DNA from: Comamonadaceae bacterium
GTDB lineage: Bacteria; Pseudomonadota; Gammaproteobacteria; Burkholderiales; Burkholderiaceae_C
NCBI GenBank assembly: GCA_947448745.1
Contig: CANFOQ010000043.1
Span: 1 to 21,671, forward strand
Length of the DNA: 21,671 nt
Direction: 5' to 3'
Shown here: positions 1,069 through 11,081 of the stretch, piece after piece
Numbering within the stretch: the first letter of the stretch is position 1
Layout of the letters: each line of letters starts with the position of its first letter
Notes under the pieces: model-generated
The model's input: only the letters and a program-made list of their open reading frames with translations
Database searches by the model: none
What the model was told of the DNA's origin: nothing
Made by a program: the position numbers and the translations under genes

Positions 1069-1775
1069 GCCACGGCAGCTTTCAAAGCCAAGCGTTCGGC
1101 GGTGGTGAGCGCCACTTGGTCGCGCACATACAGTGGCAGGGCTTGGTCGGCATCCACGGCTTCACCGCGAAGCCACGCCATTTGGGCCAATCGAAGCAGG
1201 GGCAAGGCTTGCGGCCAAAGCTCAACACACACTGATGGCGTGGTTTGTAAATCTTGCAAGCGGTGGTGCAACTCAGGGGCGGCCATGGCATTGCCTGCGA
1301 TGACACATTCGTGTGCTTGCCAAGTTGAAGGCAAGCGCACATCCGATGGGTTGAGCAATTGTGGTGTTTGAACGCAGTGCCATTGCGCGTCTTGCCATTC
1401 ATAGGCGGCCGCATAAACCTGTTGCATGCGGGCATCCATCAACACCAATACCCGTTCAGCCTGGGGACGTGCCGCCTCGGCCACGCACAACAACGTATCG
1501 ATGGGGAGCACAGGCAAATCAGCGCCTAAGGCCAAACCTTGGGCCACTGCGCACGCGGTGCGCAAACCCGTGAAAGCGCCCGGCCCACGGCCAAAAGCAA
1601 TGGCGTTCAAATCGCTCAAGGAAAGATGCGCTTGTTGCAGCAAATTCATGACGGCAGGAATCAGTGTGGCCGAGGATTGCGCGCCGCCTGCGCCTTCAAA
1701 AGCCCAAGTGGCTTCGCCGTGTTGAACGGCCACCGATAGCCGATCGGTGCTGGTTTCCAGTGCCAACAACTTCAT
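1065..1775 (-). CDS. tsaB: tRNA t6A37 threonylcarbamoyltransferase complex dimerization subunit TsaB
   Basis: The ORF 1065..2021 was trimmed to the internal ATG at 1775: MKLLALETSTDRLSVAV...IAFGRGPGAFTGLRTACAVAQGLALG. The upstream 82 codons are low-complexity and overlap the DMT gene. ATGA overlaps occur at both ends. Confidence 0.9.
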   Translation of the reverse strand: MKLLALETSTDRLSVAVQHGEATWAFEGAGGAQSSATLIPAVMNLLQQAHLSLSDLNAIAFGRGPGAFTGLRTACAVAQGLALGADLPVLPIDTLLCVAEAARPQAERVLVLMDARMQQVYAAAYEWQDAQWHCVQTPQLLNPSDVRLPSTWQAHECVIAGNAMAAPELHHRLQDLQTTPSVCVELWPQALPLLRLAQMAWLRGEAVDADQALPLYVRDQVALTTAERLALKAAVA

Positions 1776-2752
1776 GCTTTGGCCAAGGCCACTGGAGCCT
1801 TTCGCACGCCAAACAAAATGCCAAAGGTCACCAGGGACAGACCCAGCAACAAATGCCAACCCAAAGGCTCGCCCAAAATCACCACCGCGCCCAAGGCGGA
1901 CAAGCCCGGCACCAAGGAGGTGATCATGGTCGAGCGCACGGGGCCATAGTGGCGAATCATTTGGGTGAAAGTGATGCCCGAGATGACCACCGAACCGCCG
2001 CCTTGAAACAGCGCTTGCCACAGCACTTCAGAGACGGGCGCAGTGAACAAATGGCTGGGCAGCACTTGCAGCCAAGCCAACACGGTGTACAGCGGCACAA
2101 AGCTGAAAAAGGCAAAACAGGTGATGGCGATCGTGGCGGGAATGGCTTGCAGGTTCAAGCGTCGGCTCATGACGCTGTAGGTGGACCAGCAAAAACTGGC
2201 GCACAAAAACAAAACATCACCCACCCACACAGTGCCGCCGTCAAACGCATGCAACAAACTGCTGCCGCCGACCAACATGCCGCCGCTGATGATCAGCGCC
2301 AAGCCCATCAAGCGGTTGCCATGCAAGCGTTCGCCCAACAACAGCAAGGCCAGCAAACTGGTCCAGACCGGCAAAAAACCAGGCATCAAGACCGAGCCGT
2401 GGGCGGCGGGCGCAAAGAAAAAACCGTTATAGGCCAACATGGCATAGCCCAAACCACCAAACAAACCGAGGCGCCAAGTGATGTGCCAAGGCAGCGGCGA
2501 CAGACCGCCCAAGGACCCCAAGGCTTCACCGCGTGCTTTGGCCCGTTGGCTCAACCACCAACCCCATGGCAGCAAGACCACACTCGCCCCCACCATGCGG
2601 GCCCAGGCAATGTCCAAGGGCAACAAATGCCGCGAAGCGGAGGCGCGAGCGATGACGATGAAAGCGCTCCAGATAGAAACCGTGATGACGGCAGCCAACA
2701 GGCCGACGGTTTGGGGGGGCAGTTGCCGCAGGCGAAGAATAAAAGAGCGCAT
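1772..2752 (-). CDS. DMT superfamily (EamA-like) permease
   Basis: About 326 aa counted from ATG at 2752 (MRSFILRLRQLPPQTVGLLAAVITVSIWSAF...). It has about 10 hydrophobic segments in a two-EamA-repeat layout. Its stop overlaps the tsaB start by 4 nt. Confidence 0.85.
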   Translation of the reverse strand: MRSFILRLRQLPPQTVGLLAAVITVSIWSAFIVIARASASRHLLPLDIAWARMVGASVVLLPWGWWLSQRAKARGEALGSLGGLSPLPWHITWRLGLFGGLGYAMLAYNGFFFAPAAHGSVLMPGFLPVWTSLLALLLLGERLHGNRLMGLALIISGGMLVGGSSLLHAFDGGTVWVGDVLFLCASFCWSTYSVMSRRLNLQAIPATIAITCFAFFSFVPLYTVLAWLQVLPSHLFTAPVSEVLWQALFQGGGSVVISGITFTQMIRHYGPVRSTMITSLVPGLSALGAVVILGEPLGWHLLLGLSLVTFGILFGVRKAPVALAKA

Positions 2753-2800
2753 CCCGTGATTATCTGTGGCGAGGACCAAGTGCAGTTTCATAATCGGAAC

Positions 2801-4246
2801 ATGACCATGACAACGATCAAACCAGGCCGCGTTGACCACACCATTTCACACATGCCCGCACGTCTGGTTTGCGGCGTCATGTTGATCCTGGGCTTGCTGG
2901 GCGCAGCACATGGGCAAAGCAGCTTGCCGCCCGCCGTGGAAGACGCGTTGCAACGCGCCAAATTGCCACGCGACGCACTGAGTGTGGTGGTGTTGCCCGT
3001 GGGCGCACCCGGCACCCCCCGTTTGCAGCACATGGCCGAGGTGGCCCGCAATCCAGCGTCCCTCATGAAGCTGGTCACCACCAGCGCGGCGCTGGACCTG
3101 CTGGGCCCGGCCTTCACGTGGCGCACGCCGGTGTATTTGGACGGGCAGCTGCGTGGCGATGTGTGGCACGGGCAGGTGTACTTGCAAGGCAGTGGCGACC
3201 CGAAGTTGGGCGTGGAGCAACTTTGGTTGTTGCTGCGTCGCTTGCAAGGCATGGGCATTCGCAAAATTCAGGGTGACATGGTGTTGGACCGCAGTTTGTT
3301 TTCATTGCCGCCGCACGACCCCGCCAGCTTTGATGGCGAACCCCTGCGTTCTTACAACGCCGCACCAGATGCGCTGCTGCTGAACTTCAAATCCTTGCTG
3401 ATTCAATTCGTGCCCGACCCAGCGCACAAAGTGGCGCGGGTGCATCTGGAGCCGCCCCTCGCCGGGGTGCAGGTGCAAAGCAGCGTGCCCTTGATGGGTG
3501 GCGACTGCGCCGATTACCGCGCCAGTTTGAAGCCGGAGTTTGGCCATCCTTTGAACATCCGCTTCTTGGGTGGTTTTCCTGCCAGTTGCAACGACAAACT
3601 CTGGCCCGTGGCGTATGCCGACCCCGAGCAGTTTGCAGCGCGAGCGGTGCTGGGCATGTGGCAACAACTTGGCGGGCAACTCAGTGGCAGCGTGAGAGAG
3701 GGCCCTGTGCCCACGGCCTTGAAACCTGTTTTTGTTGCAGAGTCAGCCACGCTGGGCGAAGTGGTGCGCGACATCAACAAGTTCAGCAACAACGTCATGG
3801 CCGAGCAATTGTTTTTGACGCTGGCCGCACAACAACGTGGTCAAGCCACACCGGCCTTGGCCAAAGAAGTGGTGGACGCATGGTGGCGTGAACGCGTCGG
3901 CGGTGAGCCGCCCTTGATGGACAAAGGGTCGGGCTTGAGCCGAGCCTCGCGCATCAGCGCCCAAGCCTTGGCGCATTTGCTGCAGTGGGATTGGTCGCAG
4001 GCTTTCATGCCTGAGTTGATCGCGTCACTGCCACTCACCGGCGTGGACGGCACCATGAAGCGCAGCAAAAGCAGCGCCCATGCGCATTTGAAAACCGGCA
4101 GCTTGCGCGACGCCATGGGCATTGCGGGTTATGTAGATGGCCAAAACGGCCAGCGCTTTGTGCTGGTCGCCATGTTGAATCATCCGAACGCGAACCAAGC
4201 CCGACCGGTGATGGACGCCTTGATTGATTGGACGGCCGGGCGCTGA
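2801..4246 (+). CDS. dacB: D-alanyl-D-alanine carboxypeptidase/endopeptidase (PBP4, DacB family)
   Basis: This is the real part of the 860-aa ORF 1664..4246. It has a signal-like N-terminus (MPARLVCGVMLILGLLGAAHG). The PBP4 motifs are NPASLMKLVTTSAALDLLG (SxxK), FSNNVMAEQL (SxN) and HLKTGSL (KTG). Start is ambiguous: ATG at 2801, 2807 or 2852. Confidence 0.9.
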   Translation: MTMTTIKPGRVDHTISHMPARLVCGVMLILGLLGAAHGQSSLPPAVEDALQRAKLPRDALSVVVLPVGAPGTPRLQHMAEVARNPASLMKLVTTSAALDLLGPAFTWRTPVYLDGQLRGDVWHGQVYLQGSGDPKLGVEQLWLLLRRLQGMGIRKIQGDMVLDRSLFSLPPHDPASFDGEPLRSYNAAPDALLLNFKSLLIQFVPDPAHKVARVHLEPPLAGVQVQSSVPLMGGDCADYRASLKPEFGHPLNIRFLGGFPASCNDKLWPVAYADPEQFAARAVLGMWQQLGGQLSGSVREGPVPTALKPVFVAESATLGEVVRDINKFSNNVMAEQLFLTLAAQQRGQATPALAKEVVDAWWRERVGGEPPLMDKGSGLSRASRISAQALAHLLQWDWSQAFMPELIASLPLTGVDGTMKRSKSSAHAHLKTGSLRDAMGIAGYVDGQNGQRFVLVAMLNHPNANQARPVMDALIDWTAGR

Positions 4247-4457
4247 TCAAATGTCATCCCAGCGTCAATAGAGTGCAACATAATGCATTCATCGCCGATT
4301 CCTCAGCAGAAATTAGGGTATTGGAGGGCGAAAAAGATGAAAAACCCTGCATGAACTAGGTATTTACACGGTTGTTCAAGCGAGCAGAAATTTCAAGAAT
4401 GCGAGGGTTCGAAGTTTGAATACGGTTTTTCATACCGCTTTTAGAAGGAGTTGTCAG
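4247..4457 (+). promoter_or_regulatory. AT-rich upstream/leader region of the monooxygenase operon (candidate promoter, repeated TTCAAG-like hexamers, strong SD)
   Basis: This region is visibly the most AT-rich stretch of the window. A candidate sigma70 -35 TTTACA (4363-4368) is followed by a weak -10 AGAAAT after 17 nt. TTCAAG occurs at 4375 and 4392, TTCGAA at 4408 and TTGAAT at 4416, a period of roughly 16-17 bp for the first three. SD AGAAGGAG (4443-4450) lies 7 nt before ATG 4458. The promoter assignment is tentative. Confidence 0.35.
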
Positions 4458-5237
4458 ATGTCCACCTTGACCAGTCGTGATCTCAATATGTCCAGTTCGC
4501 AGGACACCACGTCCCGCTTCACCCTCAGCTATGTTTGGTTTGCTGTCGCCATGACGGTGCTGACCGGTGTTTACGTGTCCTACCGCGTCTACCAACAGAT
4601 GTACGGCATGTCGGCAGGTTTGGATTCCACCGAACCCATCTTCCAAGACATCTGGATGCGTTTGTTTTGGATTCAATTGCCCGTGCTGTTTGGCATCGTG
4701 GCCCTGATTCAGGTGTATCTGTTTGTCACCCGGGACCGCAACATTGACGCTATCACGCCCGAGGTTGAACTCAAGCGCTATTTCGCCCTGACCATGTGGT
4801 TGGTGGTCTACACCTTCACCTTCTACTGGATTGGCAGCTTTTTTGGTGAAGGCGACGGCAACTGGCACCAAACCGTGTTGCGTGATACACCCATCACGCC
4901 CAGCCATGTGGTGCTGTTTTACGCTTGCATTCCGCTGTACTTGATGTTCGGTATCGGCAGCTTCGTCTATGCCATGACCCGCATCCCCGCTTTCTGCAAA
5001 GGCATCTCCTTGATGCACGTGTTTGCAGTCGTTGGCCCTTTCTTGATCCTGCCCAACCTGGGCTACAACGAATGGGGTCATGCCTACTGGTTGACCGAAG
5101 AAATCTTCTCTCATCCATTGCACTGGGGCTTTGTGGTGCTGGGCTGGAACGCCTTGTCACTGGCGGGCGTCTTGATGCAAATCATTTCACGATTCCGTGA
5201 CCTGATGCCCATCGTTTTCAAGAACGAAACCGCCTGA
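4458..5237 (+). CDS. xmoC: Copper membrane monooxygenase subunit C (PmoC/AmoC/XmoC family)
   Basis: 259 aa from ATG 4458, preceded by a strong SD; the track ORF starts at an upstream TTG at 4416. Family hallmarks are SFFGEGDGNWHQTVLRDTPITPSHVV, YAMTRIP.F and LPNLGYNEWGHAYWLTEEIFSHPLHWGFVVLGW. Both Asp/His/His and Asn/His/His metal-ligand triads are present. Confidence 0.93.
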   Translation: MSTLTSRDLNMSSSQDTTSRFTLSYVWFAVAMTVLTGVYVSYRVYQQMYGMSAGLDSTEPIFQDIWMRLFWIQLPVLFGIVALIQVYLFVTRDRNIDAITPEVELKRYFALTMWLVVYTFTFYWIGSFFGEGDGNWHQTVLRDTPITPSHVVLFYACIPLYLMFGIGSFVYAMTRIPAFCKGISLMHVFAVVGPFLILPNLGYNEWGHAYWLTEEIFSHPLHWGFVVLGWNALSLAGVLMQIISRFRDLMPIVFKNETA

Positions 5238-5263
5238 ACGGCCTTTCCCACTAGGAACTCATC

Positions 5264-6115
5264 ATGAACACAGAAACACTGCAACACCCTCAGGGTGCTG
5301 CGGCAGGACAAGTGCACGCCAAAGATACTGTCATCAGCGTGTCGGGACTGTCGCCCAAGGCTCTTCATTTCTCCCGCGTCTTCGAACTCTTTGTGGTGGC
5401 CGCCATCATCATGCTGTTTGCCGGCGCCATCCACTTGCATGTGTTGCTGTTGGCTGGCGACTGGGACATGTTCTTGGATTGGAAAGACCGTCAATACTGG
5501 CCGTTGTTGTCGCCTGTGGTGATGATCATGTTCCCAGCGGCTTTGCAGGGCATTTTCTGGACCTACTTCCGCTTGCCCATTGGTGCGACCGTGGGTGCCA
5601 CCTGTTTGATGTTGGCCGTGTCGATTTCGCGTCCCGCGTCATTCATGTGGTGGACCGATTACCCCTTGAACCTGGTGTTGCCCGCGCAAATGATTGCCAG
5701 TGCGATTGTGTTGGACGTGTTTTTGCTGGTGTTTCGCAATGCCTTGTTCACCGCCATTTTTGGCGGCTTTGCGTTTGCGTTTTTGTTCTACCCTTCCAAC
5801 TACGCCATCTTTGCGCCGTTTTATGTGCCAGTCAGCCACCAAGGCATGATGGCCTCTATGGCCGACTTGATTGGCTATGTGTATCCCCGCTCGGCCACGC
5901 CCGAGTACATCCGCATCATTGAGCGCGGGACCTTGCGCACCTTTGGCGACTCGGCCAGTTGGGTCTCGGCGTTGTTTGGGGGCTTTATTTGCATCTTCAT
6001 GCACTATGCCTGGTGGTATTTGGGCATTGCCATGTCCTCCATGAAGTTCCTGCCCAACAACGCCAAAGTCATGGCCTTGATGGGAACCAAAGCGGATGTC
6101 AAAGCAAGTGCTTGA
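5264..6115 (+). CDS. xmoA: Copper membrane monooxygenase subunit A (PmoA/AmoA/XmoA family)
   Basis: 283 aa. Hallmark motifs are LLAGDWDMFLDWKDRQYWP, ATPEYIRIIERGTLRTFG and WWYLG, plus multiple TM segments. It lies 26 nt downstream of xmoC, in canonical C-A-B order. Confidence 0.95.
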   Translation: MNTETLQHPQGAAAGQVHAKDTVISVSGLSPKALHFSRVFELFVVAAIIMLFAGAIHLHVLLLAGDWDMFLDWKDRQYWPLLSPVVMIMFPAALQGIFWTYFRLPIGATVGATCLMLAVSISRPASFMWWTDYPLNLVLPAQMIASAIVLDVFLLVFRNALFTAIFGGFAFAFLFYPSNYAIFAPFYVPVSHQGMMASMADLIGYVYPRSATPEYIRIIERGTLRTFGDSASWVSALFGGFICIFMHYAWWYLGIAMSSMKFLPNNAKVMALMGTKADVKASA

Positions 6116-6140
6116 GCGCCAACCTTCAAGGGGAAAAATT

Positions 6141-7400
6141 GTGCTGTTGATTCAAAAAACAATGAAGTTGTTCGCGCTTTGGCTGGGCTTGGTGCTGGTG
6201 ACCGGTGTCGCCACCGAGTCGGCCTGGGCCCATGGTGAGCGTTCACAAGAACCGTACCTGCGTACTCGCACGGTGCAGTACTACGACGTGCATTACGACA
6301 AGCAAACGGTCAAAGTGAATGAAGAGTTCACCTTGATTGGCAAATTTCGTTTGATGGAAGACTGGCCCGATGCGGTCAGCTTGCCCGAGACCGTGTTCTT
6401 GGCGGCCTATGCACCAGGCCCCATGATCACCCGCGTGGAAAGCTACTTGAATGGCGTGCCTGCGCGTCAATCCTTCTCCAAACTGGAGTTGGGTCGAGAC
6501 TATGAATTCAAGTTGGTCATGAAAGGCCGCGTGCCTGGGCGTCACCACATTCATCCCTTGTTGTCTGTCAAGGGCTCCGGCCCCTTGGTCGGCCCAGGTC
6601 AATGGATTGAAGTCACGGGCAGCAAGGCCGACTTTGTGCACAAAGTCACCACCATGAATGGTGTTGAGATTGACAACATCGAGTTCTACGGCATCTCACG
6701 TGCATTGAAATGGTATGGCGTTTGGATTGCGTTGGCTGCCTTCTGGTTGCTGTTCTGGTTGGTGCGTCCTTTGTTGCTACCACGTTGGATCGCCTTGAAC
6801 AAAGGCCGCGAAGACGTGCTCATCTCCAACCGCGATGTCACCGTGGGTGTGATCTTGGGGGTCGTGGTCGTGGCCATCTCATTTGGCGGCTACATCTATG
6901 CCAACAAAGAGTACCCCTATGTCGTGCCCTTGCAAGCCGGCACCAACAAAGTGGACCCCTTGCCCAAGCCCATGCATTCGGTGGAGGTGACGGTGACGAA
7001 AGCCACGTATGACGTGCCAGGACGCTCCATGAACATCACGGCACGCATGACCAACCGGGGTGCCGAACCCGTGTCCATCCTCGAGTTCGCCACCGCCAAC
7101 CTGCGCTTTGTCAATCAGCAAGCGCCTGGCGCCGACAAAGCGGTGTCGGCGGACTACCCCCGCGACTTGGTGGCCCGTGCAGGTTTGGGCATGTCGGATC
7201 AAAAACCCTTGATGCCTGGGGAAACCCGCGAGATCAAACTCGAAGCCAGCGATGCCTTGTGGGAAGTCGAGCGCTTGGTGAGTTTCTTGACCGATGTGGA
7301 CTCCAAGTTTGGTGGACTGCTGTTCTTTGTCGACAAGTCGGGCAACCGCTTGATGACCGAAATTGGCGGCCCCATCCTGCCCACCTTCACGGCTTTGTGA
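6141..7400 (+). CDS. xmoB: Copper membrane monooxygenase subunit B (PmoB/AmoB/XmoB family)
   Basis: The signal peptide ends ...ATESAWA|HGERSQEPYLRTRTVQYYD, the same N-terminal His context as PmoB. GRHHIHPLLSVKGSGPLVGPGQWIEVTG carries the HxH. There are two central TM helices and a C-terminal cupredoxin-like domain. Start is either GTG 6141 (SD AAGGGGA 6 nt upstream) or ATG 6162; ATG 6096 would overlap xmoA. Confidence 0.92.
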   Translation: MLLIQKTMKLFALWLGLVLVTGVATESAWAHGERSQEPYLRTRTVQYYDVHYDKQTVKVNEEFTLIGKFRLMEDWPDAVSLPETVFLAAYAPGPMITRVESYLNGVPARQSFSKLELGRDYEFKLVMKGRVPGRHHIHPLLSVKGSGPLVGPGQWIEVTGSKADFVHKVTTMNGVEIDNIEFYGISRALKWYGVWIALAAFWLLFWLVRPLLLPRWIALNKGREDVLISNRDVTVGVILGVVVVAISFGGYIYANKEYPYVVPLQAGTNKVDPLPKPMHSVEVTVTKATYDVPGRSMNITARMTNRGAEPVSILEFATANLRFVNQQAPGADKAVSADYPRDLVARAGLGMSDQKPLMPGETREIKLEASDALWEVERLVSFLTDVDSKFGGLLFFVDKSGNRLMTEIGGPILPTFTAL

Positions 7401-7401
7401 G

Positions 7402-7965
7402 ATGCGCATGAAACGTGTTGTGATGAGTTGGTGCCTGTTGCTCGGTGCAACAGGTGCTTGGGCGCATGGTGGTTTGTCCATGGAACAAGACATGTGCAAA
7501 CTCACCGTTGGGCCCTACATGATGCACTTCGCGGGTTACCAAGAAGACGCACAGCGCACCGAGTTTTGTGAAGACATTCCGCACAAAGGGCCGACCATCA
7601 TCGTGCTGGATGTGGTGGATTTGGCTTTGCGTGACTTGCCCATCGAGTTTCGCATTGTGCGCAAAACAGATGGTCCTTTGGATGCTGCGCCCGAGGTCTA
7701 CAAACTCGCACCTGCGGTTTATCCCAAAGGCACTTTGATGATTCGCCACGACTTCATGGACGACGGCGATTACGTCGGTTTGGTCTATGCCGGCGCAGAC
7801 CGCAAACACAGTTCGGTGTTTCCGTTTTCAGTGGGCAAACAAGGCGGCTATTGGAAATACACCTTGGGCTTGGTCGGCTTGTTGCTGTTGGCGGTGTTTG
7901 GCTTGCAAGTTGGTCGACAACGCTTGCAAAAAGACATTGCCAGGCAAGGCCAAAACGAGGCTTGA
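7402..7965 (+). CDS. xmoD: PmoD/AmoD-like periplasmic copper protein with C-terminal membrane anchor
   Basis: 187 aa from ATG 7402, 1 nt after the xmoB stop. The signal peptide is MRMKRVVMSWCLLLGATGAWA|HGG. The motif C32-X7-M40-X-H42 (CKLTVGPYMMH) matches the C-X7-M-X-H signature I recall for PmoD. The C-terminal TM helix is YTLGLVGLLLLAVFGLQVG. Its position after CAB matches xmoCABD/amoCAB-orf4/5 layouts. Confidence 0.7.
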   Translation: MRMKRVVMSWCLLLGATGAWAHGGLSMEQDMCKLTVGPYMMHFAGYQEDAQRTEFCEDIPHKGPTIIVLDVVDLALRDLPIEFRIVRKTDGPLDAAPEVYKLAPAVYPKGTLMIRHDFMDDGDYVGLVYAGADRKHSSVFPFSVGKQGGYWKYTLGLVGLLLLAVFGLQVGRQRLQKDIARQGQNEA

Positions 7966-7968
7966 GAC

Positions 7969-8340
7969 TTGACCGCAATCCGTTTGTTTGCATGGCTGGC
8001 GCTGGCCTGGGGCTTCATGCCCTGGTCTGCGCTGGCCCATGCGCATTTGCGCGGCAGTGAGCCGCCAGCGAACGCGGTGATTGCACAAGCGCCGCAACAA
8101 ATCCGCTTGAAATTCTCCGAGCCGGTTGAGAAACACTTTTCGCGCATTGACATCCAAACCGATAAAGAAGTCATCGTGTTGCCCGCCAACAGTTTGCAAT
8201 GGGATGCGGCTGGCAAGTCCTTGCAAATTGAGGTGCCACCCCATGCAACGGCGACAAGTTATCAAGTGGAATGGTCCATCTTGGCCAAAGATGGGCACCC
8301 TGGCAAAGGGCGGCTGAACTTCAAGGTCAAACCCCAATAA
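7969..8340 (+). CDS. copC: Periplasmic copper-binding protein CopC (Cu(II)-site-only type)
   Basis: 123 aa with a TTG start 3 nt after the xmoD stop. The signal peptide ends ...WSALA|HAHLRGSEP. The CopC signature is YQVEWSILAKDGHPGKGRLNFKV (D-x-H). There is no Met-rich Cu(I) loop. Confidence 0.88.
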   Translation: MTAIRLFAWLALAWGFMPWSALAHAHLRGSEPPANAVIAQAPQQIRLKFSEPVEKHFSRIDIQTDKEVIVLPANSLQWDAAGKSLQIEVPPHATATSYQVEWSILAKDGHPGKGRLNFKVKPQ

Positions 8341-8341
8341 C

Positions 8342-10234
8342 GTGGACGCCTCCGTTGCCCTGCGCGGTTTGCAAACAGCCCTGCTGGCGTGTGCATTCGG
8401 CTTGGCTTTTTTACTGCGCTTGGCCCACATATTCAGCGATGATTTAAAAGCGCAAGCATTGCGTTGGCTCAAGTGGGTCACTGCACTCGTGTTGCTTTTG
8501 CAAGCAATGCGTTTGGGCGACATGGCTTGGTCCTTGCAAGCCTTGTTGGCCCCTGGCGCATCGGTGTTCAGTGTGTTTCAAACCTATGGTGGCCAGGTGT
8601 TGCTTGGCCAAGCGGTGGTGCTGTTGTTGGCCGCTGCGGGTGTCTGGTTGTGGCGATGGCGCAGCTTGCAAATCACGGCGGTGCTGCTGTTGTTCATGGC
8701 GATGGTGGCCATGGGCCTGAGTGGTCATGTGGTGTCGGCATCCGAAGAAACCGTGCTGAGTTTGGCCGCCATCATGCATGTGCTGTTGGCGCAGTTGTGG
8801 GTGGCGGGCGTGTTGGCTTTGCTGTTTCTGGCCAAACACGGCGGGCCCGATTGGACTCAAAGATTGGCGGTGTTTTCCAAATGGGCTTTGCCCGGCATGG
8901 TGTTGCTGCTGCTGAGTGGCGTGTACCTTGGCCGATGGAGTGTCGGCAGTTGGCCAGGTTTGTTGGCCACCAACTATGGTGCTTTGCTGGTCTTGAAACT
9001 TGTCTTTGTGGTGGGTGCATTGTGGTGTGCTTGGCAACTGCGACGCGGCCTCGCTGTCCAACCCCAAGACCCGGCGCAACAGCAATCGTGGTTGAGCAGC
9101 GAAGCGGGCTTGGCCTTGACCGTGTTGGCAGCGGCCAGTGTGTTGGCGTCGACCGTGCCCGCCTCACACGACACCATCGTGTGGCCGTTGTCGTTTCGCT
9201 TAGCGCCGGTGTTGGCTTGGCGTCAAGACGCCCAGCACACCGTGCAAATGCTGGTCATCAGTTTGGCCTTGTGTGTGGCGGGCTTGGCCTTGTGGATGCG
9301 TTGGCGCCAGCAACATCGTGCTCGCGCCAAAAGCGTGTTGGCCGCTTGTGTGATCGCAAGTTTGTCGCTGGCATTGCCCGCCATCAGCATCACCGCCTAC
9401 CCCACCACCTACATGCATTCATCAGCGCGATTGGATGCGCCCTCCGTCATGGCGGGGCAGGCCTTGTATGAACAGCATTGCGTGCAATGTCATGGCGTGC
9501 ATGGGCACGGCGATGGACCGGTGGCGCAGCTGAACAAATTGCAACCAGCCAACTTGACCGAGCCGCATGTCAGTTGGCACACGCATGGCGACATGTACTG
9601 GTGGCTCAGCCATGGCAAGGGCCAGATGCCGGGCTTTGCGGATGTGTTGTCAGAAGAAGAGCGCTGGCACCTGATCAATTGGTTGATTGCCCTTTCATTG
9701 GGCTATGAAGCGCGTTCGATCACGCCAACCCCTGCAGCTTTCAACCCTTGGTTGCCCAGCATCGATTTCCGTTTTCAAATGGACAACAACAACTTCATGT
9801 CCTTGTCCGAGTGGCGCGGTTTGCATCCGGTGCACCTGATCATCGTCAACCAGCGTGAAGAACTGCAACGGGTGCGTGATTTGTTGAAGGACATGAAAGG
9901 CTTCCCCGCACAATTGGTCATCGTCAGCCGTCCTGAATGGTTGAAGGACTTGGTGAAAGGGCCGTGTGAAGCGGTGCTGGTGGGCGACGCAAATGGCGAC
10001 ATTGCCCGCGCGTGGGCCCATTACCGACGAAGCTTTGCAACCCCCGATTTGTTGAACGAAGAAACCCAGGTGGCACGCATGGAATTTTTGATCGACCGTT
10101 TTGGTTTTGTGCGGGCCCGTTGGCGCTCCGATGAAACACCCAACGCCTTGTCTTTGAATGCATTGAAATCGATTTACGACAGCTTGGCCCCTGAGGGCGA
10201 AATCAAATCAGCGGCGATCCATCAACATGACTGA
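8342..10234 (+). CDS. copD: CopD-family copper transport membrane protein fused to a class-I cytochrome c domain and a C-terminal thioredoxin-fold (peroxiredoxin/TlpA-like, no CxxC) domain
   Basis: 630 aa with a GTG start 1 nt after the copC stop. About 10 hydrophobic helices span residues 1-355. The heme motif CVQCH sits at 9479-9493, with the distal Met in GKGQMPGF. Residues from about 465 to 630 have a redoxin-like strand pattern (HLIIVNQ..., LVIVSRPE, LVGDANGDIARAW, FLIDRFGFVRARW). Confidence 0.85.
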   Translation: MDASVALRGLQTALLACAFGLAFLLRLAHIFSDDLKAQALRWLKWVTALVLLLQAMRLGDMAWSLQALLAPGASVFSVFQTYGGQVLLGQAVVLLLAAAGVWLWRWRSLQITAVLLLFMAMVAMGLSGHVVSASEETVLSLAAIMHVLLAQLWVAGVLALLFLAKHGGPDWTQRLAVFSKWALPGMVLLLLSGVYLGRWSVGSWPGLLATNYGALLVLKLVFVVGALWCAWQLRRGLAVQPQDPAQQQSWLSSEAGLALTVLAAASVLASTVPASHDTIVWPLSFRLAPVLAWRQDAQHTVQMLVISLALCVAGLALWMRWRQQHRARAKSVLAACVIASLSLALPAISITAYPTTYMHSSARLDAPSVMAGQALYEQHCVQCHGVHGHGDGPVAQLNKLQPANLTEPHVSWHTHGDMYWWLSHGKGQMPGFADVLSEEERWHLINWLIALSLGYEARSITPTPAAFNPWLPSIDFRFQMDNNNFMSLSEWRGLHPVHLIIVNQREELQRVRDLLKDMKGFPAQLVIVSRPEWLKDLVKGPCEAVLVGDANGDIARAWAHYRRSFATPDLLNEETQVARMEFLIDRFGFVRARWRSDETPNALSLNALKSIYDSLAPEGEIKSAAIHQHD

Positions 10235-11081
10235 ACAGACCCTTCAGGAAAAAACCCGTACATGGCACAAAGCCCAATGGCTCATCGGCGCTTTGGCGTT
10301 GATGGGTTTTTTGTACATGGTGGGCAAGAGTTGGATCAAGCCGCCCTTGCCGCAAGCGGCGGCATCGGTGAAAGCCACGACAGGCACTTGTGCACAAGCC
10401 TTGAGTGGTCAAGCGGGCCGCAGTGCTGAATTGAAAACCCCGAACGGCTTGCGCTACAGCGTGGTCGCGCCCAGCAACTACCAAGCGGACAAGCAACATG
10501 GCTTGTTGATGATGTACCCGCCCGCGGGCTTCAATCACGAGATGGCTGAGCACTATTACCAACTGACGACCCAAGCCAACAGCCAAGGCTATGTGGTGGT
10601 TTACAGCGCGTCCATTCCGTTGTCAGCACGTGCCTTGCGCTTGCAAAACGAAGTGGTGCCGCAGGTCTTGGCCAGCTGGTGCATTGACCCCCATCGCATT
10701 GTGTATGCAGGGCATTCTGATGGCGGCACCCTCAGCACAGGGCTCACGGTTCGGGCGCAAGCGCAAGACCCCGCGCCTCACACTATCGTTGCCAGCGCAG
10801 CGGGCATCACCCAAGAAGATTTGCAGCAAGAGCAGTGTCCCGCGCCTTTGAATGTGACGGTGTTGCACAACCCGAAAGACGATTTGTTTCCGGGCTTTGG
10901 TGAGGGCGCAGTGAAGTGGTGGGGTCAATGCATGCAGTGTGCAGAGCCCGTGCAAACCGAGGCAACCGGTTGCACGGTTCGGCAATGCACCCAGGGCAAG
11001 GTGTTGCGCCATTGCGTGACGCCAGAGCCACATGTGAAGTTTCCGGCGGTGGCTTCGCACATGTTGGAGTGGCTTGACTGA
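10227..11081 (+). CDS. Membrane-anchored alpha/beta-hydrolase, PHB-depolymerase/LpqC-like esterase family
   Basis: 284 aa. Its start overlaps the copD stop by 8 nt. The N-terminal TM anchor is WLIGALALMGFLYMVG and the nucleophile elbow is GHSDGG. The Cys-rich C-terminus (WWGQCMQCAEP...GCTVRQCTQGKVLRHC...PH.KFP) resembles the tail of COG3509-type esterases. Confidence 0.7.
   Translation: MTEQTLQEKTRTWHKAQWLIGALALMGFLYMVGKSWIKPPLPQAAASVKATTGTCAQALSGQAGRSAELKTPNGLRYSVVAPSNYQADKQHGLLMMYPPAGFNHEMAEHYYQLTTQANSQGYVVVYSASIPLSARALRLQNEVVPQVLASWCIDPHRIVYAGHSDGGTLSTGLTVRAQAQDPAPHTIVASAAGITQEDLQQEQCPAPLNVTVLHNPKDDLFPGFGEGAVKWWGQCMQCAEPVQTEATGCTVRQCTQGKVLRHCVTPEPHVKFPAVASHMLEWLD

Follow-up and report, generated by a model that had tools for sequence, protein, structure and literature searches.

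The window analysed here is a 21,671-nucleotide (nt) stretch of a Comamonadaceae bacterium genome (assembly GCA_947448745.1, contig CANFOQ010000043.1, positions 1 to 21,671 of the forward strand), and the subject of this report is a copD-type gene in it that encodes a 630-amino-acid (aa) protein combining three domains: a CopD permease core, a class-I cytochrome c domain, and a Cys-less thioredoxin-fold domain (Table 1). The gene is part of a string that is headed by the genes of a copper membrane monooxygenase, xmoCAB (4416-7400, + strand); the genes flanking the string are housekeeping genes (Sua5, PurK, PurC, aldolase, and pyruvate kinase). The amoB (i.e., xmoB) stop is at 7400, the pmoD ATG at 7402, the copC TTG at 7969, and the copD GTG at 8342, that is, 2 nt past the copC stop; the open reading frame (ORF) is the copD of an extended xmoCAB-pmoD-copC-copD operon.

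Copper has to find its way into the active sites of both ammonia and methane monooxygenases, and CopC, a tight holder of Cu(II), has to hand its copper over to CopD; a redox step appears to be missing from this picture, and a permease that carries its own heme domain, in the monooxygenase operons of nitrifiers, methanotrophs, and their relatives, is the obvious candidate for it. The tri-domain architecture itself is already in the literature, in one sentence: about 4% of roughly 50,000 proteobacterial CopDs, including that of Methylosinus trichosporium OB3b, have a cytochrome cbb3 domain joined to a Sco1- or thioredoxin-like domain (PMC11923076, 2025). The window protein fits this description and is a member of a widespread subfamily; the value of the results lies in the family and not in this particular copy, because the gene is ordinary for such operons. 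New here are a third conserved histidine of the permease part (H276), a two-histidine signature of the heme domain (H409/H413) together with its alignment to His83 of a cytochrome c552, and a C-terminal His-x-His.

Table 1. Features of the monooxygenase-copper gene string and of the copD product (positions in the window; conservation among 77 family sequences)
Feature	Position	Strand	Evidence
xmoC	4416-5237	+	Pfam AmoC; NCBIfam AmoC_BACT score exceeds cut-off
xmoA	5264-6115	+	Pfam AMO; NCBIfam AmoA_BACT 284 vs cut-off 290, just under
xmoB	6096-7400	+	Pfam Monooxygenase_B; NCBIfam AmoB_BACT score exceeds cut-off
pmoD/amoE-like gene, 200-codon ORF	7402-7965	+	Signal peptide, Cx7MxH (CKLTVGPYMMH), C-terminal membrane helix
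copC, periplasmic copper-binding partner	7969-8340	+	Pfam CopC, 71 bits
copD-type gene, 630 aa: CopD core, cytochrome c, Cys-less thioredoxin-fold domain	8342-10234	+	Pfam, same-layout homologues of 600-700 aa, AlphaFold2
CopD core (residues 1-275): eight transmembrane helices, N-terminus predicted to be outside	8342-9166	+	Pfam, hydropathy, positive-inside rule, model, YebZ alignment
His129, equivalent of YebZ His135	8726-8728	+	YebZ alignment; 77/77 members
His146, equivalent of YebZ His154	8777-8779	+	YebZ alignment; 77/77 members
Predicted periplasmic loop after helix 8: His276 and WPLSFR	9167-9199	+	Not in YebZ, which stops before this segment
Extra helical hairpin (helices 9-10) with predicted cytoplasmic turn RWRQQHRARAK, returning the chain to the periplasm	9230-9391	+	Hydropathy, model
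AYPTTY linker motif at membrane exit	9395-9412	+	A352 in 72/77, P354 in 76/77, T356 in 77/77
Class-I cytochrome c domain, c552/CcoP-like	9419-9706	+	Pfam, PDB sequence search, Foldseek
Heme-binding motif CVQCH (C380, C383, H384)	9479-9493	+	77/77 members
HVSWH: His409 and His413, H-x3-H subfamily signature	9566-9580	+	H409 in 76/77, H413 in 77/77
Met429 (GKGQMPGF), predicted distal heme ligand	9626-9628	+	M429 and P430 in 77/77; aligns with MPGF of c552
Thioredoxin-fold domain of the peroxiredoxin/TlpA type, Cys-less, spanning about residues 465-620, with FLIDRFGFVRARW at 10085-10123	9734-10201	+	Profile vs PDB, Foldseek, relatives' Pfam
Flexible C-terminal tail AAIHQHD, His-x-His (H627, H629)	10211-10231	+	pLDDT <50 for residues 624-630

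Three domains of the copD product

The membrane part is recognized by the Pfam model CopD (PF05425; residues 175-268, 55.8 bits, gathering score 32.1), which also matches all 40 aligned relatives, and it scores 39.5 bits, below the cut-off of 195, with the NCBIfam CopD equivalog NF033808; that is, the product belongs to a distant CopD subfamily and is not a canonical CopD. A hydropathy scan placed nine helices over threshold and the AlphaFold2 model of the full protein (mean predicted local distance difference test, pLDDT, 88.8; predicted template modelling score, pTM, 0.77) adds a less hydrophobic tenth at about residues 44-64, giving a total of ten, in agreement with the estimate of about ten in the first-pass annotation of this DNA. 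Loops rich in Lys and Arg (RWRS, AKHGG..., QLRRG, and RWRQQHRARAK) alternate with acidic or neutral ones. Because these four basic loops are assigned to the cytoplasm, the heme and redoxin-like domains are predicted to be periplasmic, as had been proposed from the same loops by eye, and both the short N-terminus and all residues past 351 are predicted to lie outside the cytoplasm. The topology of Bacillus subtilis YcnJ, in which an outside CopC domain comes ahead of the CopD core, is concordant (PMC13344008).

The two histidines of the core that are invariant in the family (His129 and His146) are the equivalents of the residues known to matter in Escherichia coli YebZ, a plain CopD, where the H135A replacement reduces copper uptake and H154A abolishes it (PMC11923076). 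A third, subfamily-specific histidine, H276 (73/77 members), is located at the predicted periplasmic end of helix 8 and is followed by a WPxSFR motif, of which W281 and R286 are found in 77/77 members and residues 285-287 form a short strand in the AlphaFold2 model.

The domain that follows the extra hairpin is matched over residues 369-448 by two Pfam cytochrome models, Cytochrome_CBB3 (PF13442; 52.4 bits against 27) and Cytochrom_C (PF00034; 38.5 against 21.3). The CVQCH motif is exactly where the first-pass annotation had put it, and so is the distal Met in GKGQMPGF. Covalent heme attachment to CxxCH takes place only outside the cytoplasm, which agrees with the predicted location of this domain. 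The combination of CxxCH plus distal Met, the family models, and the predicted extracytoplasmic site is that of a class I c-type cytochrome, and heme would be covalently attached to CVQCH.

Among solved structures, the heme domain is closest to the cytochrome c552 of Thioalkalivibrio paradoxus (PDB 7o9u and 9vr0; E 1.5e-16), and the same protein was matched by Foldseek with a target template modelling score (TM-score) of 0.77 and 36% identity across the alignment. Common to the two are CxxCH, MPGF, and H-x3-H, with H409/H413 aligning with His83/His87 of c552 in the PDB sequence search. The T. paradoxus protein has an unusually exposed heme, a midpoint potential (Em) of about +160 mV, and His-rich disordered ends, and takes electrons from the tricopper enzyme thiocyanate dehydrogenase; its His83 is a proposed link between the heme 7-propionate and the copper enzyme, on the electron path (PMC9456337). 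Unlike the permease-fused heme domain here, however, c552 is a free periplasmic protein. Having an electron partner of a copper enzyme as the closest solved homologue, and a gene located inside an xmoCAB-pmoD string, raises the alternative that the membrane-anchored heme domain serves the copper monooxygenase or the CuA-like PmoD as c552 serves thiocyanate dehydrogenase, with no part in copper transport. The gene neighbourhoods of the relatives bear on this alternative (below).

For the last domain, which the first-pass annotation had described as about 165 aa with a strand pattern of redoxins, the window protein itself has no Pfam match, although AhpC-TSA (PF00578) matches 9/40 and Redoxin 4/40 of the aligned relatives. 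Hence, of the domain models expected from that annotation, CopD and Cytochrom_C were found in the window protein and the redoxin-type ones only in some relatives. When 14 copies of the domain were combined into a profile and searched against PDB, AhpE (4e-8), Bcp, ResA (~1e-6), and TlpA (0.01) were found, and Foldseek matched the AlphaFold2 model to AhpE, Bcp, and B. subtilis Sco (rank 11) with target TM-scores of about 0.6. These matches are significant and not due to chance, and confirm, at the level of profiles and predicted structure, a peroxiredoxin/TlpA-type thioredoxin fold. The layout CopD-cytochrome c-thioredoxin fold that was read from the letters alone is thus borne out by Pfam, the Pfam matches of the relatives, the PDB profile, and Foldseek.

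While AhpE/Bcp, ResA/TlpA, and Sco have the fold in common with this domain, it lacks the peroxidatic Cys, the CxxC, and the Sco CxxxC with His ligand of these families, respectively. CxxC or CxxxC was found in the domain (last 175 residues) of none of the 77 members, no peroxidatic Cys (PxxxT/SxxC) was detected and the equivalent stretch is shortened and Cys-free in the AhpE alignment, and the Sco1/SenC combination of CxxxC and distal His is absent as well (CxxxC in 0/77), so that only the fold resembles B. subtilis Sco. The sole Cys past residue 383, C542 in GPCEAV, is clade-specific, and 59/77 members have an entirely Cys-free domain; the earlier remark that CxxC and peroxidatic Cys are missing and GPCEAV holds the only Cys thus extends, for the missing motifs, to the whole family. 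Therefore, the thioredoxin fold holds but membership of the redox-active families fails, because the required cysteines are missing, and a thiol-based redox role of the peroxiredoxin, TlpA, or Sco type was ruled out. For the same reason (absence of those cysteines and ligands), the domain is incapable of thiol chemistry or of Sco-style copper binding. The domain nonetheless is under constraint and not decaying, because it is 73-84% identical to those of the closest genomes (membrane part, 45-52%) and D585, R591, R593, and E618 are found in 77/77 members.

The protein ends in a His-rich tail, residues 624-630, the only low-confidence part of the AlphaFold2 model. His-x-His forms the exact C-terminal end in 53/77 members, typically as ...PPPDDHVH, and lies inside the last six residues in 58/77; five more end in HxxH. 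With its flexible, His-rich tail, the soluble module might also be a regulatory sensor: under this alternative, the heme redox state, or copper bound to the tail, would gate the CopD channel so that import tracks the periplasmic redox state or copper load. There is a precedent in YebY, a separate periplasmic protein of E. coli that has been proposed to be a safety valve inhibiting YebZ/YobA import at high copper (PMC11923076). The invariant heme ligands and c552-type histidines, however, fit catalysis at least as well as they fit sensing, and we consider a regulatory role very unlikely.

Family distribution and gene neighbourhood

A word-indexed protein search returned 54 homologues, mostly of 620-670 aa and with the same Pfam layout, one of which is annotated as a Bradyrhizobium 'CopD family protein'. 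Scanning one genome per species, we found relatives encoded in at least 351 species, and assessed the gene neighbourhoods of the best 80 loci. These loci include Nitrosomonas amo operons, comammox Nitrospira, Methylocapsa, Methylocella, Bradyrhizobium, many Burkholderiales, Rokubacteria, and Methylomirabilota. The closest relatives are freshwater Betaproteobacteria and Comamonadaceae metagenome-assembled genomes (MAGs), at 57-62% identity, while the Nitrosomonas, Nitrospira, and Methylocapsa proteins are 29-33% identical over the full length. The three-domain layout, the copC partner, and the operon logic seen here are shared with the amoCABED-copCD operons of betaproteobacterial ammonia-oxidizing bacteria (e.g., the N. 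marina locus carries amoC-A-B, a pmoD-like gene, copC, and copD), with comammox Nitrospira, and with pmoCAB-pmoD-copC-copD of OB3b; the window copy differs from the copD of these extended operons in its tail (AAIHQHD instead of ...DDHVH) and in the clade-specific C542. Low-abundance CopD has been detected in Nitrosomonas and Nitrosospira proteomes.

The gene immediately ahead of copD, in the same orientation, is a copC in 73 of the 80 related loci, whereas xmoCAB or pmoD are found within 8 kb in only 50, which makes CopC the constant partner. Co-occurrence with xmo/amo/pmo operons, for which the first-pass annotation had proposed a survey, is therefore real for these 50 loci but does not extend to all: the Methylocella loci have neither xmoCAB nor pmoD within 8 kb, and together with a CusF-type copper cluster they rule out a fusion that is specific to xmo operons. 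In the latter cluster (locus L082, 396-8339), which holds a more distant family member and is free of monooxygenase genes, the tri-domain CopD is encoded beside CusF, a cytochrome c/P19-like protein of 318 aa, and two additional copC genes; one of the latter is paired with a 454-aa CopD-cytochrome c protein without the thioredoxin-like domain. Cytochrome c-CopD fusions exist in other layouts as well, some including CopC and some lacking the last domain.

Residues 352-630, the soluble module alone, were the query of an exhaustive search (E<=1e-30), which gave 140 clusters, nearly all of them proteins of 600-700 aa that carry the module C-terminally. Fusion to CopD is the rule for the module, because nearly all clusters are full-length and the short matches look like fragments; a stand-alone cytochrome c plus thioredoxin-like module was considered and rejected, as the short matches resemble truncated gene calls that start within helices 9-10 or the heme domain. 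These patterns also bear on the electron-carrier alternative introduced above. The presence of xmo or pmoD genes near 50/80 related loci is in its favour, but the fusion is kept, always with copC, in loci without a visible monooxygenase or pmoD (Methylocella and the CusF-type cluster), and the module is almost never free of CopD, which ties its role to the permease. Accordingly, we consider it unlikely that the heme domain is simply an electron carrier for the monooxygenase or PmoD.

Two relatives deserve separate mention. One of 554 aa (P0053) retains the CopD core together with the general layout, yet is missing the CxxCH at the heme position, and is apparently a heme-less variant. At the locus of a distant relative (L084, 9950-12016), a called gene of 688 aa has both the AMO (subunit A) and the Monooxygenase_B Pfam domains, and could be either a real A-B fusion or an artefact of gene calling or a frameshift.

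A possible redox step between CopC and CopD

Because CopC is the constant partner and CopD the constant fusion partner, the most likely role of the soluble module is in passing copper between the two. The reading that we favour, tentatively and at somewhat less than an even chance, is that the module reduces CopC-delivered Cu(II) by a built-in one-electron step and so releases the copper to CopD, with the Cys-less domain and His-x-His tail as a docking or hand-off element. More specifically, periplasmic CopC would carry copper to the eight-helix CopD core, at whose periplasmic mouth H129, H146, and H276 are predicted to sit, while the two extra helices would bring the chain back to the periplasm, where it bears the His/Met cytochrome c and the Cys-free peroxiredoxin-like domain with its tail. 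During this passage, the heme domain would most likely exchange single electrons with the copper as a built-in redox partner; Cu(II) to Cu(I) is the most probable direction, and would let CopC release the metal and the permease take it up. The thioredoxin-fold domain and the tail would probably be a docking or copper hand-off module and not a thiol redox enzyme, and the physiological purpose could be to provide copper for the neighbouring copper monooxygenase as well as other cuproenzymes.

YebZ imports copper, with His135/His154 required, and its uptake is boosted by the CopC homologue YobA (PMC11923076). YebZ and Pseudomonas CopD/PcoD share with the window protein the Pfam CopD match, both functional histidines, and an upstream copC-type gene, but YebZ has only 290 aa and is without helices 9-10, the H276 loop, the heme domain, and the thioredoxin-fold domain. 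YcnJ, a CopC-CopD-YtkA fusion whose function requires CopC and the CopD histidine (PMC13344008), also combines the CopD core with a C-terminal extracytoplasmic copper-related domain, although in its case the extra domain is of the YtkA/CtaK type and not a heme or thioredoxin-fold domain, and CopC is fused while it is separate here. For CopC/CopD import no reductase is known, and a local cupric reductase may be needed according to the B. subtilis work (PMC13344008). Reductases that accompany a copper pathway are found elsewhere, and their construction is different from that of the window protein. In yeast, Fre1/Ctr1 represent a dedicated Cu(II) reductase beside a copper pathway, an analogy of function only. 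The CcoG cupric reductase of Rhodobacter capsulatus (PMC13344008) is another functional analogy of this kind, without homology. Reductases of the Fre1/CcoG type work with flavin plus a b-type heme, or with Fe-S clusters, and, unlike the heme domain of the window protein, are separate from the permease.

Several points weigh against reduction as the role of the soluble module. The oxidation state of the copper carried by CopD is not settled (PMC11923076), and in M. trichosporium OB3b, according to a review of a copCD mutant, neither copper uptake nor the copper switch depended critically on these genes (PMC7558416). The His-x-His tail is missing from 14/77 members, mostly Nitrosomonas, and thus cannot be essential everywhere. 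We found no biochemical work in the literature on the soluble domains of any subfamily member; hence, the statement of the first-pass annotation that no characterised example is known stands for the biochemistry of these domains, although the architecture is neither rare nor unnoticed (PMC11923076). Finally, the predicted mature CopC has an N-terminal HAHL, a DGH motif, and zero Met, and therefore displays solely Cu(II)-type site motifs. From general copper chemistry, a strong Cu(II) preference of such a site is expected to bring the copper potential down, and a heme near +160 mV (the value of the homologue) would then have to reduce it uphill, except where a tight Cu(I) acceptor draws the reaction forward.

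It is because of this thermodynamic caveat that we keep the reverse reaction as a rival, that is, a cuprous oxidase or loading device in which the heme domain oxidizes Cu(I) to Cu(II) and thereby loads a CopC that is specific for Cu(II). The source of the Cu(I) would be export via CopD or the free periplasmic pool, and CopC would then fill copper sites of the monooxygenase or of PmoD, either periplasmic ones or ones in the membrane. With a CopC that has only Cu(II)-type motifs, oxidation towards CopC should be thermodynamically downhill, and the copper sites that need filling are outside the cytoplasm; further, Corynebacterium glutamicum CtiP fuses CopD-related domains to the oxidase assembly factor CtaG, and the OB3b mutant just mentioned is consistent with a role other than uptake (PMC7558416). 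However, the only direct data on a CopD, those of YebZ, show import via the same two histidines (PMC11923076), the YcnJ data likewise favour import (PMC13344008), and export activity is known for no CopD. Oxidation is thus, in our view, an improbable direction, and we favour the reduction of CopC-delivered Cu(II).

A more detailed version of the reductive reading is that H409/H413 by the heme propionate, the His-x-His tail, and H276 bind copper within electron-transfer distance of the heme, where CopC Cu(II) would be reduced, released, and passed into CopD. We regard this version as unlikely as a whole. Conservation provides direct targets for mutagenesis: H276, H409, H413, and the C-terminal His-x-His. 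If this version is true, bacteria would have their first described case of a copper importer coupled to a reductase, and the protein would represent the copper supply route of ammonia-, methane-, and alkane-oxidizing monooxygenases.

Neighbouring genes and other features of the window

The xmoA and xmoB genes overlap by 20 nt. The XmoCAB proteins score as bacterial AMO-type, yet the nearest genomes are freshwater Comamonadaceae and Betaproteobacteria MAGs and not known nitrifiers; no hao gene was found within the window, and the substrate may be either ammonia or short alkanes. Compared with the loci of two such MAGs (L001 and L003), the operon (4416-10234) is unevenly conserved: XmoA is 97-98% and XmoB/XmoC 88-90% identical, CopC 47-69%, the membrane part of CopD 48-52%, and its heme and thioredoxin-like domains 73-82%.

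The 200-codon ORF between xmoB and copC, with ATG 7402 as its probable start, is assigned to the PmoD/AmoE type because it combines the three features listed in Table 1, the Cx7MxH motif being that defined for PmoD (PMC6189053). It has no Pfam or NCBIfam match, although the family has already been described, and contains an additional Cys (EFCED); its homologues are found beside related copCD genes in 50 of the 80 loci.

The G+C content is 0.53-0.58 across the monooxygenase-copper cluster (window positions 4001-11000) and 0.59-0.62 in the flanking housekeeping genes, which is compatible with a horizontally acquired island. Upstream of the cluster, an 860-aa ORF (1664-4246, +) has a Peptidase_S13 match that covers residues 424-858 only; its initial 420 codons belong to no family and coincide with an unusually strong AT skew (0.335 at 2001-3000), and the ORF may be over-extended or conceal another feature.

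Finally, the end of copD shares 8 nt with a 284-aa ORF (10227-11081, +). The hydrophobic N-terminal segment of this ORF includes a terminator-like hairpin (10279-10308), which was therefore read as coding sequence. The product combines a membrane anchor at its N-terminus with a serine-hydrolase elbow (GHSDG) and a C-terminus rich in Cys; no Pfam family could be assigned to it with confidence (a single sub-threshold Abhydrolase_3 match, and none precomputed for the homologues), and some sources label it 'predicted esterase' or 'PHB depolymerase'. Of the 80 related copCD loci, 24 encode homologues, at variable positions, and 22 of these 24 have xmo genes; the ORF may represent an unrecognized conserved partner of copper monooxygenase clusters.

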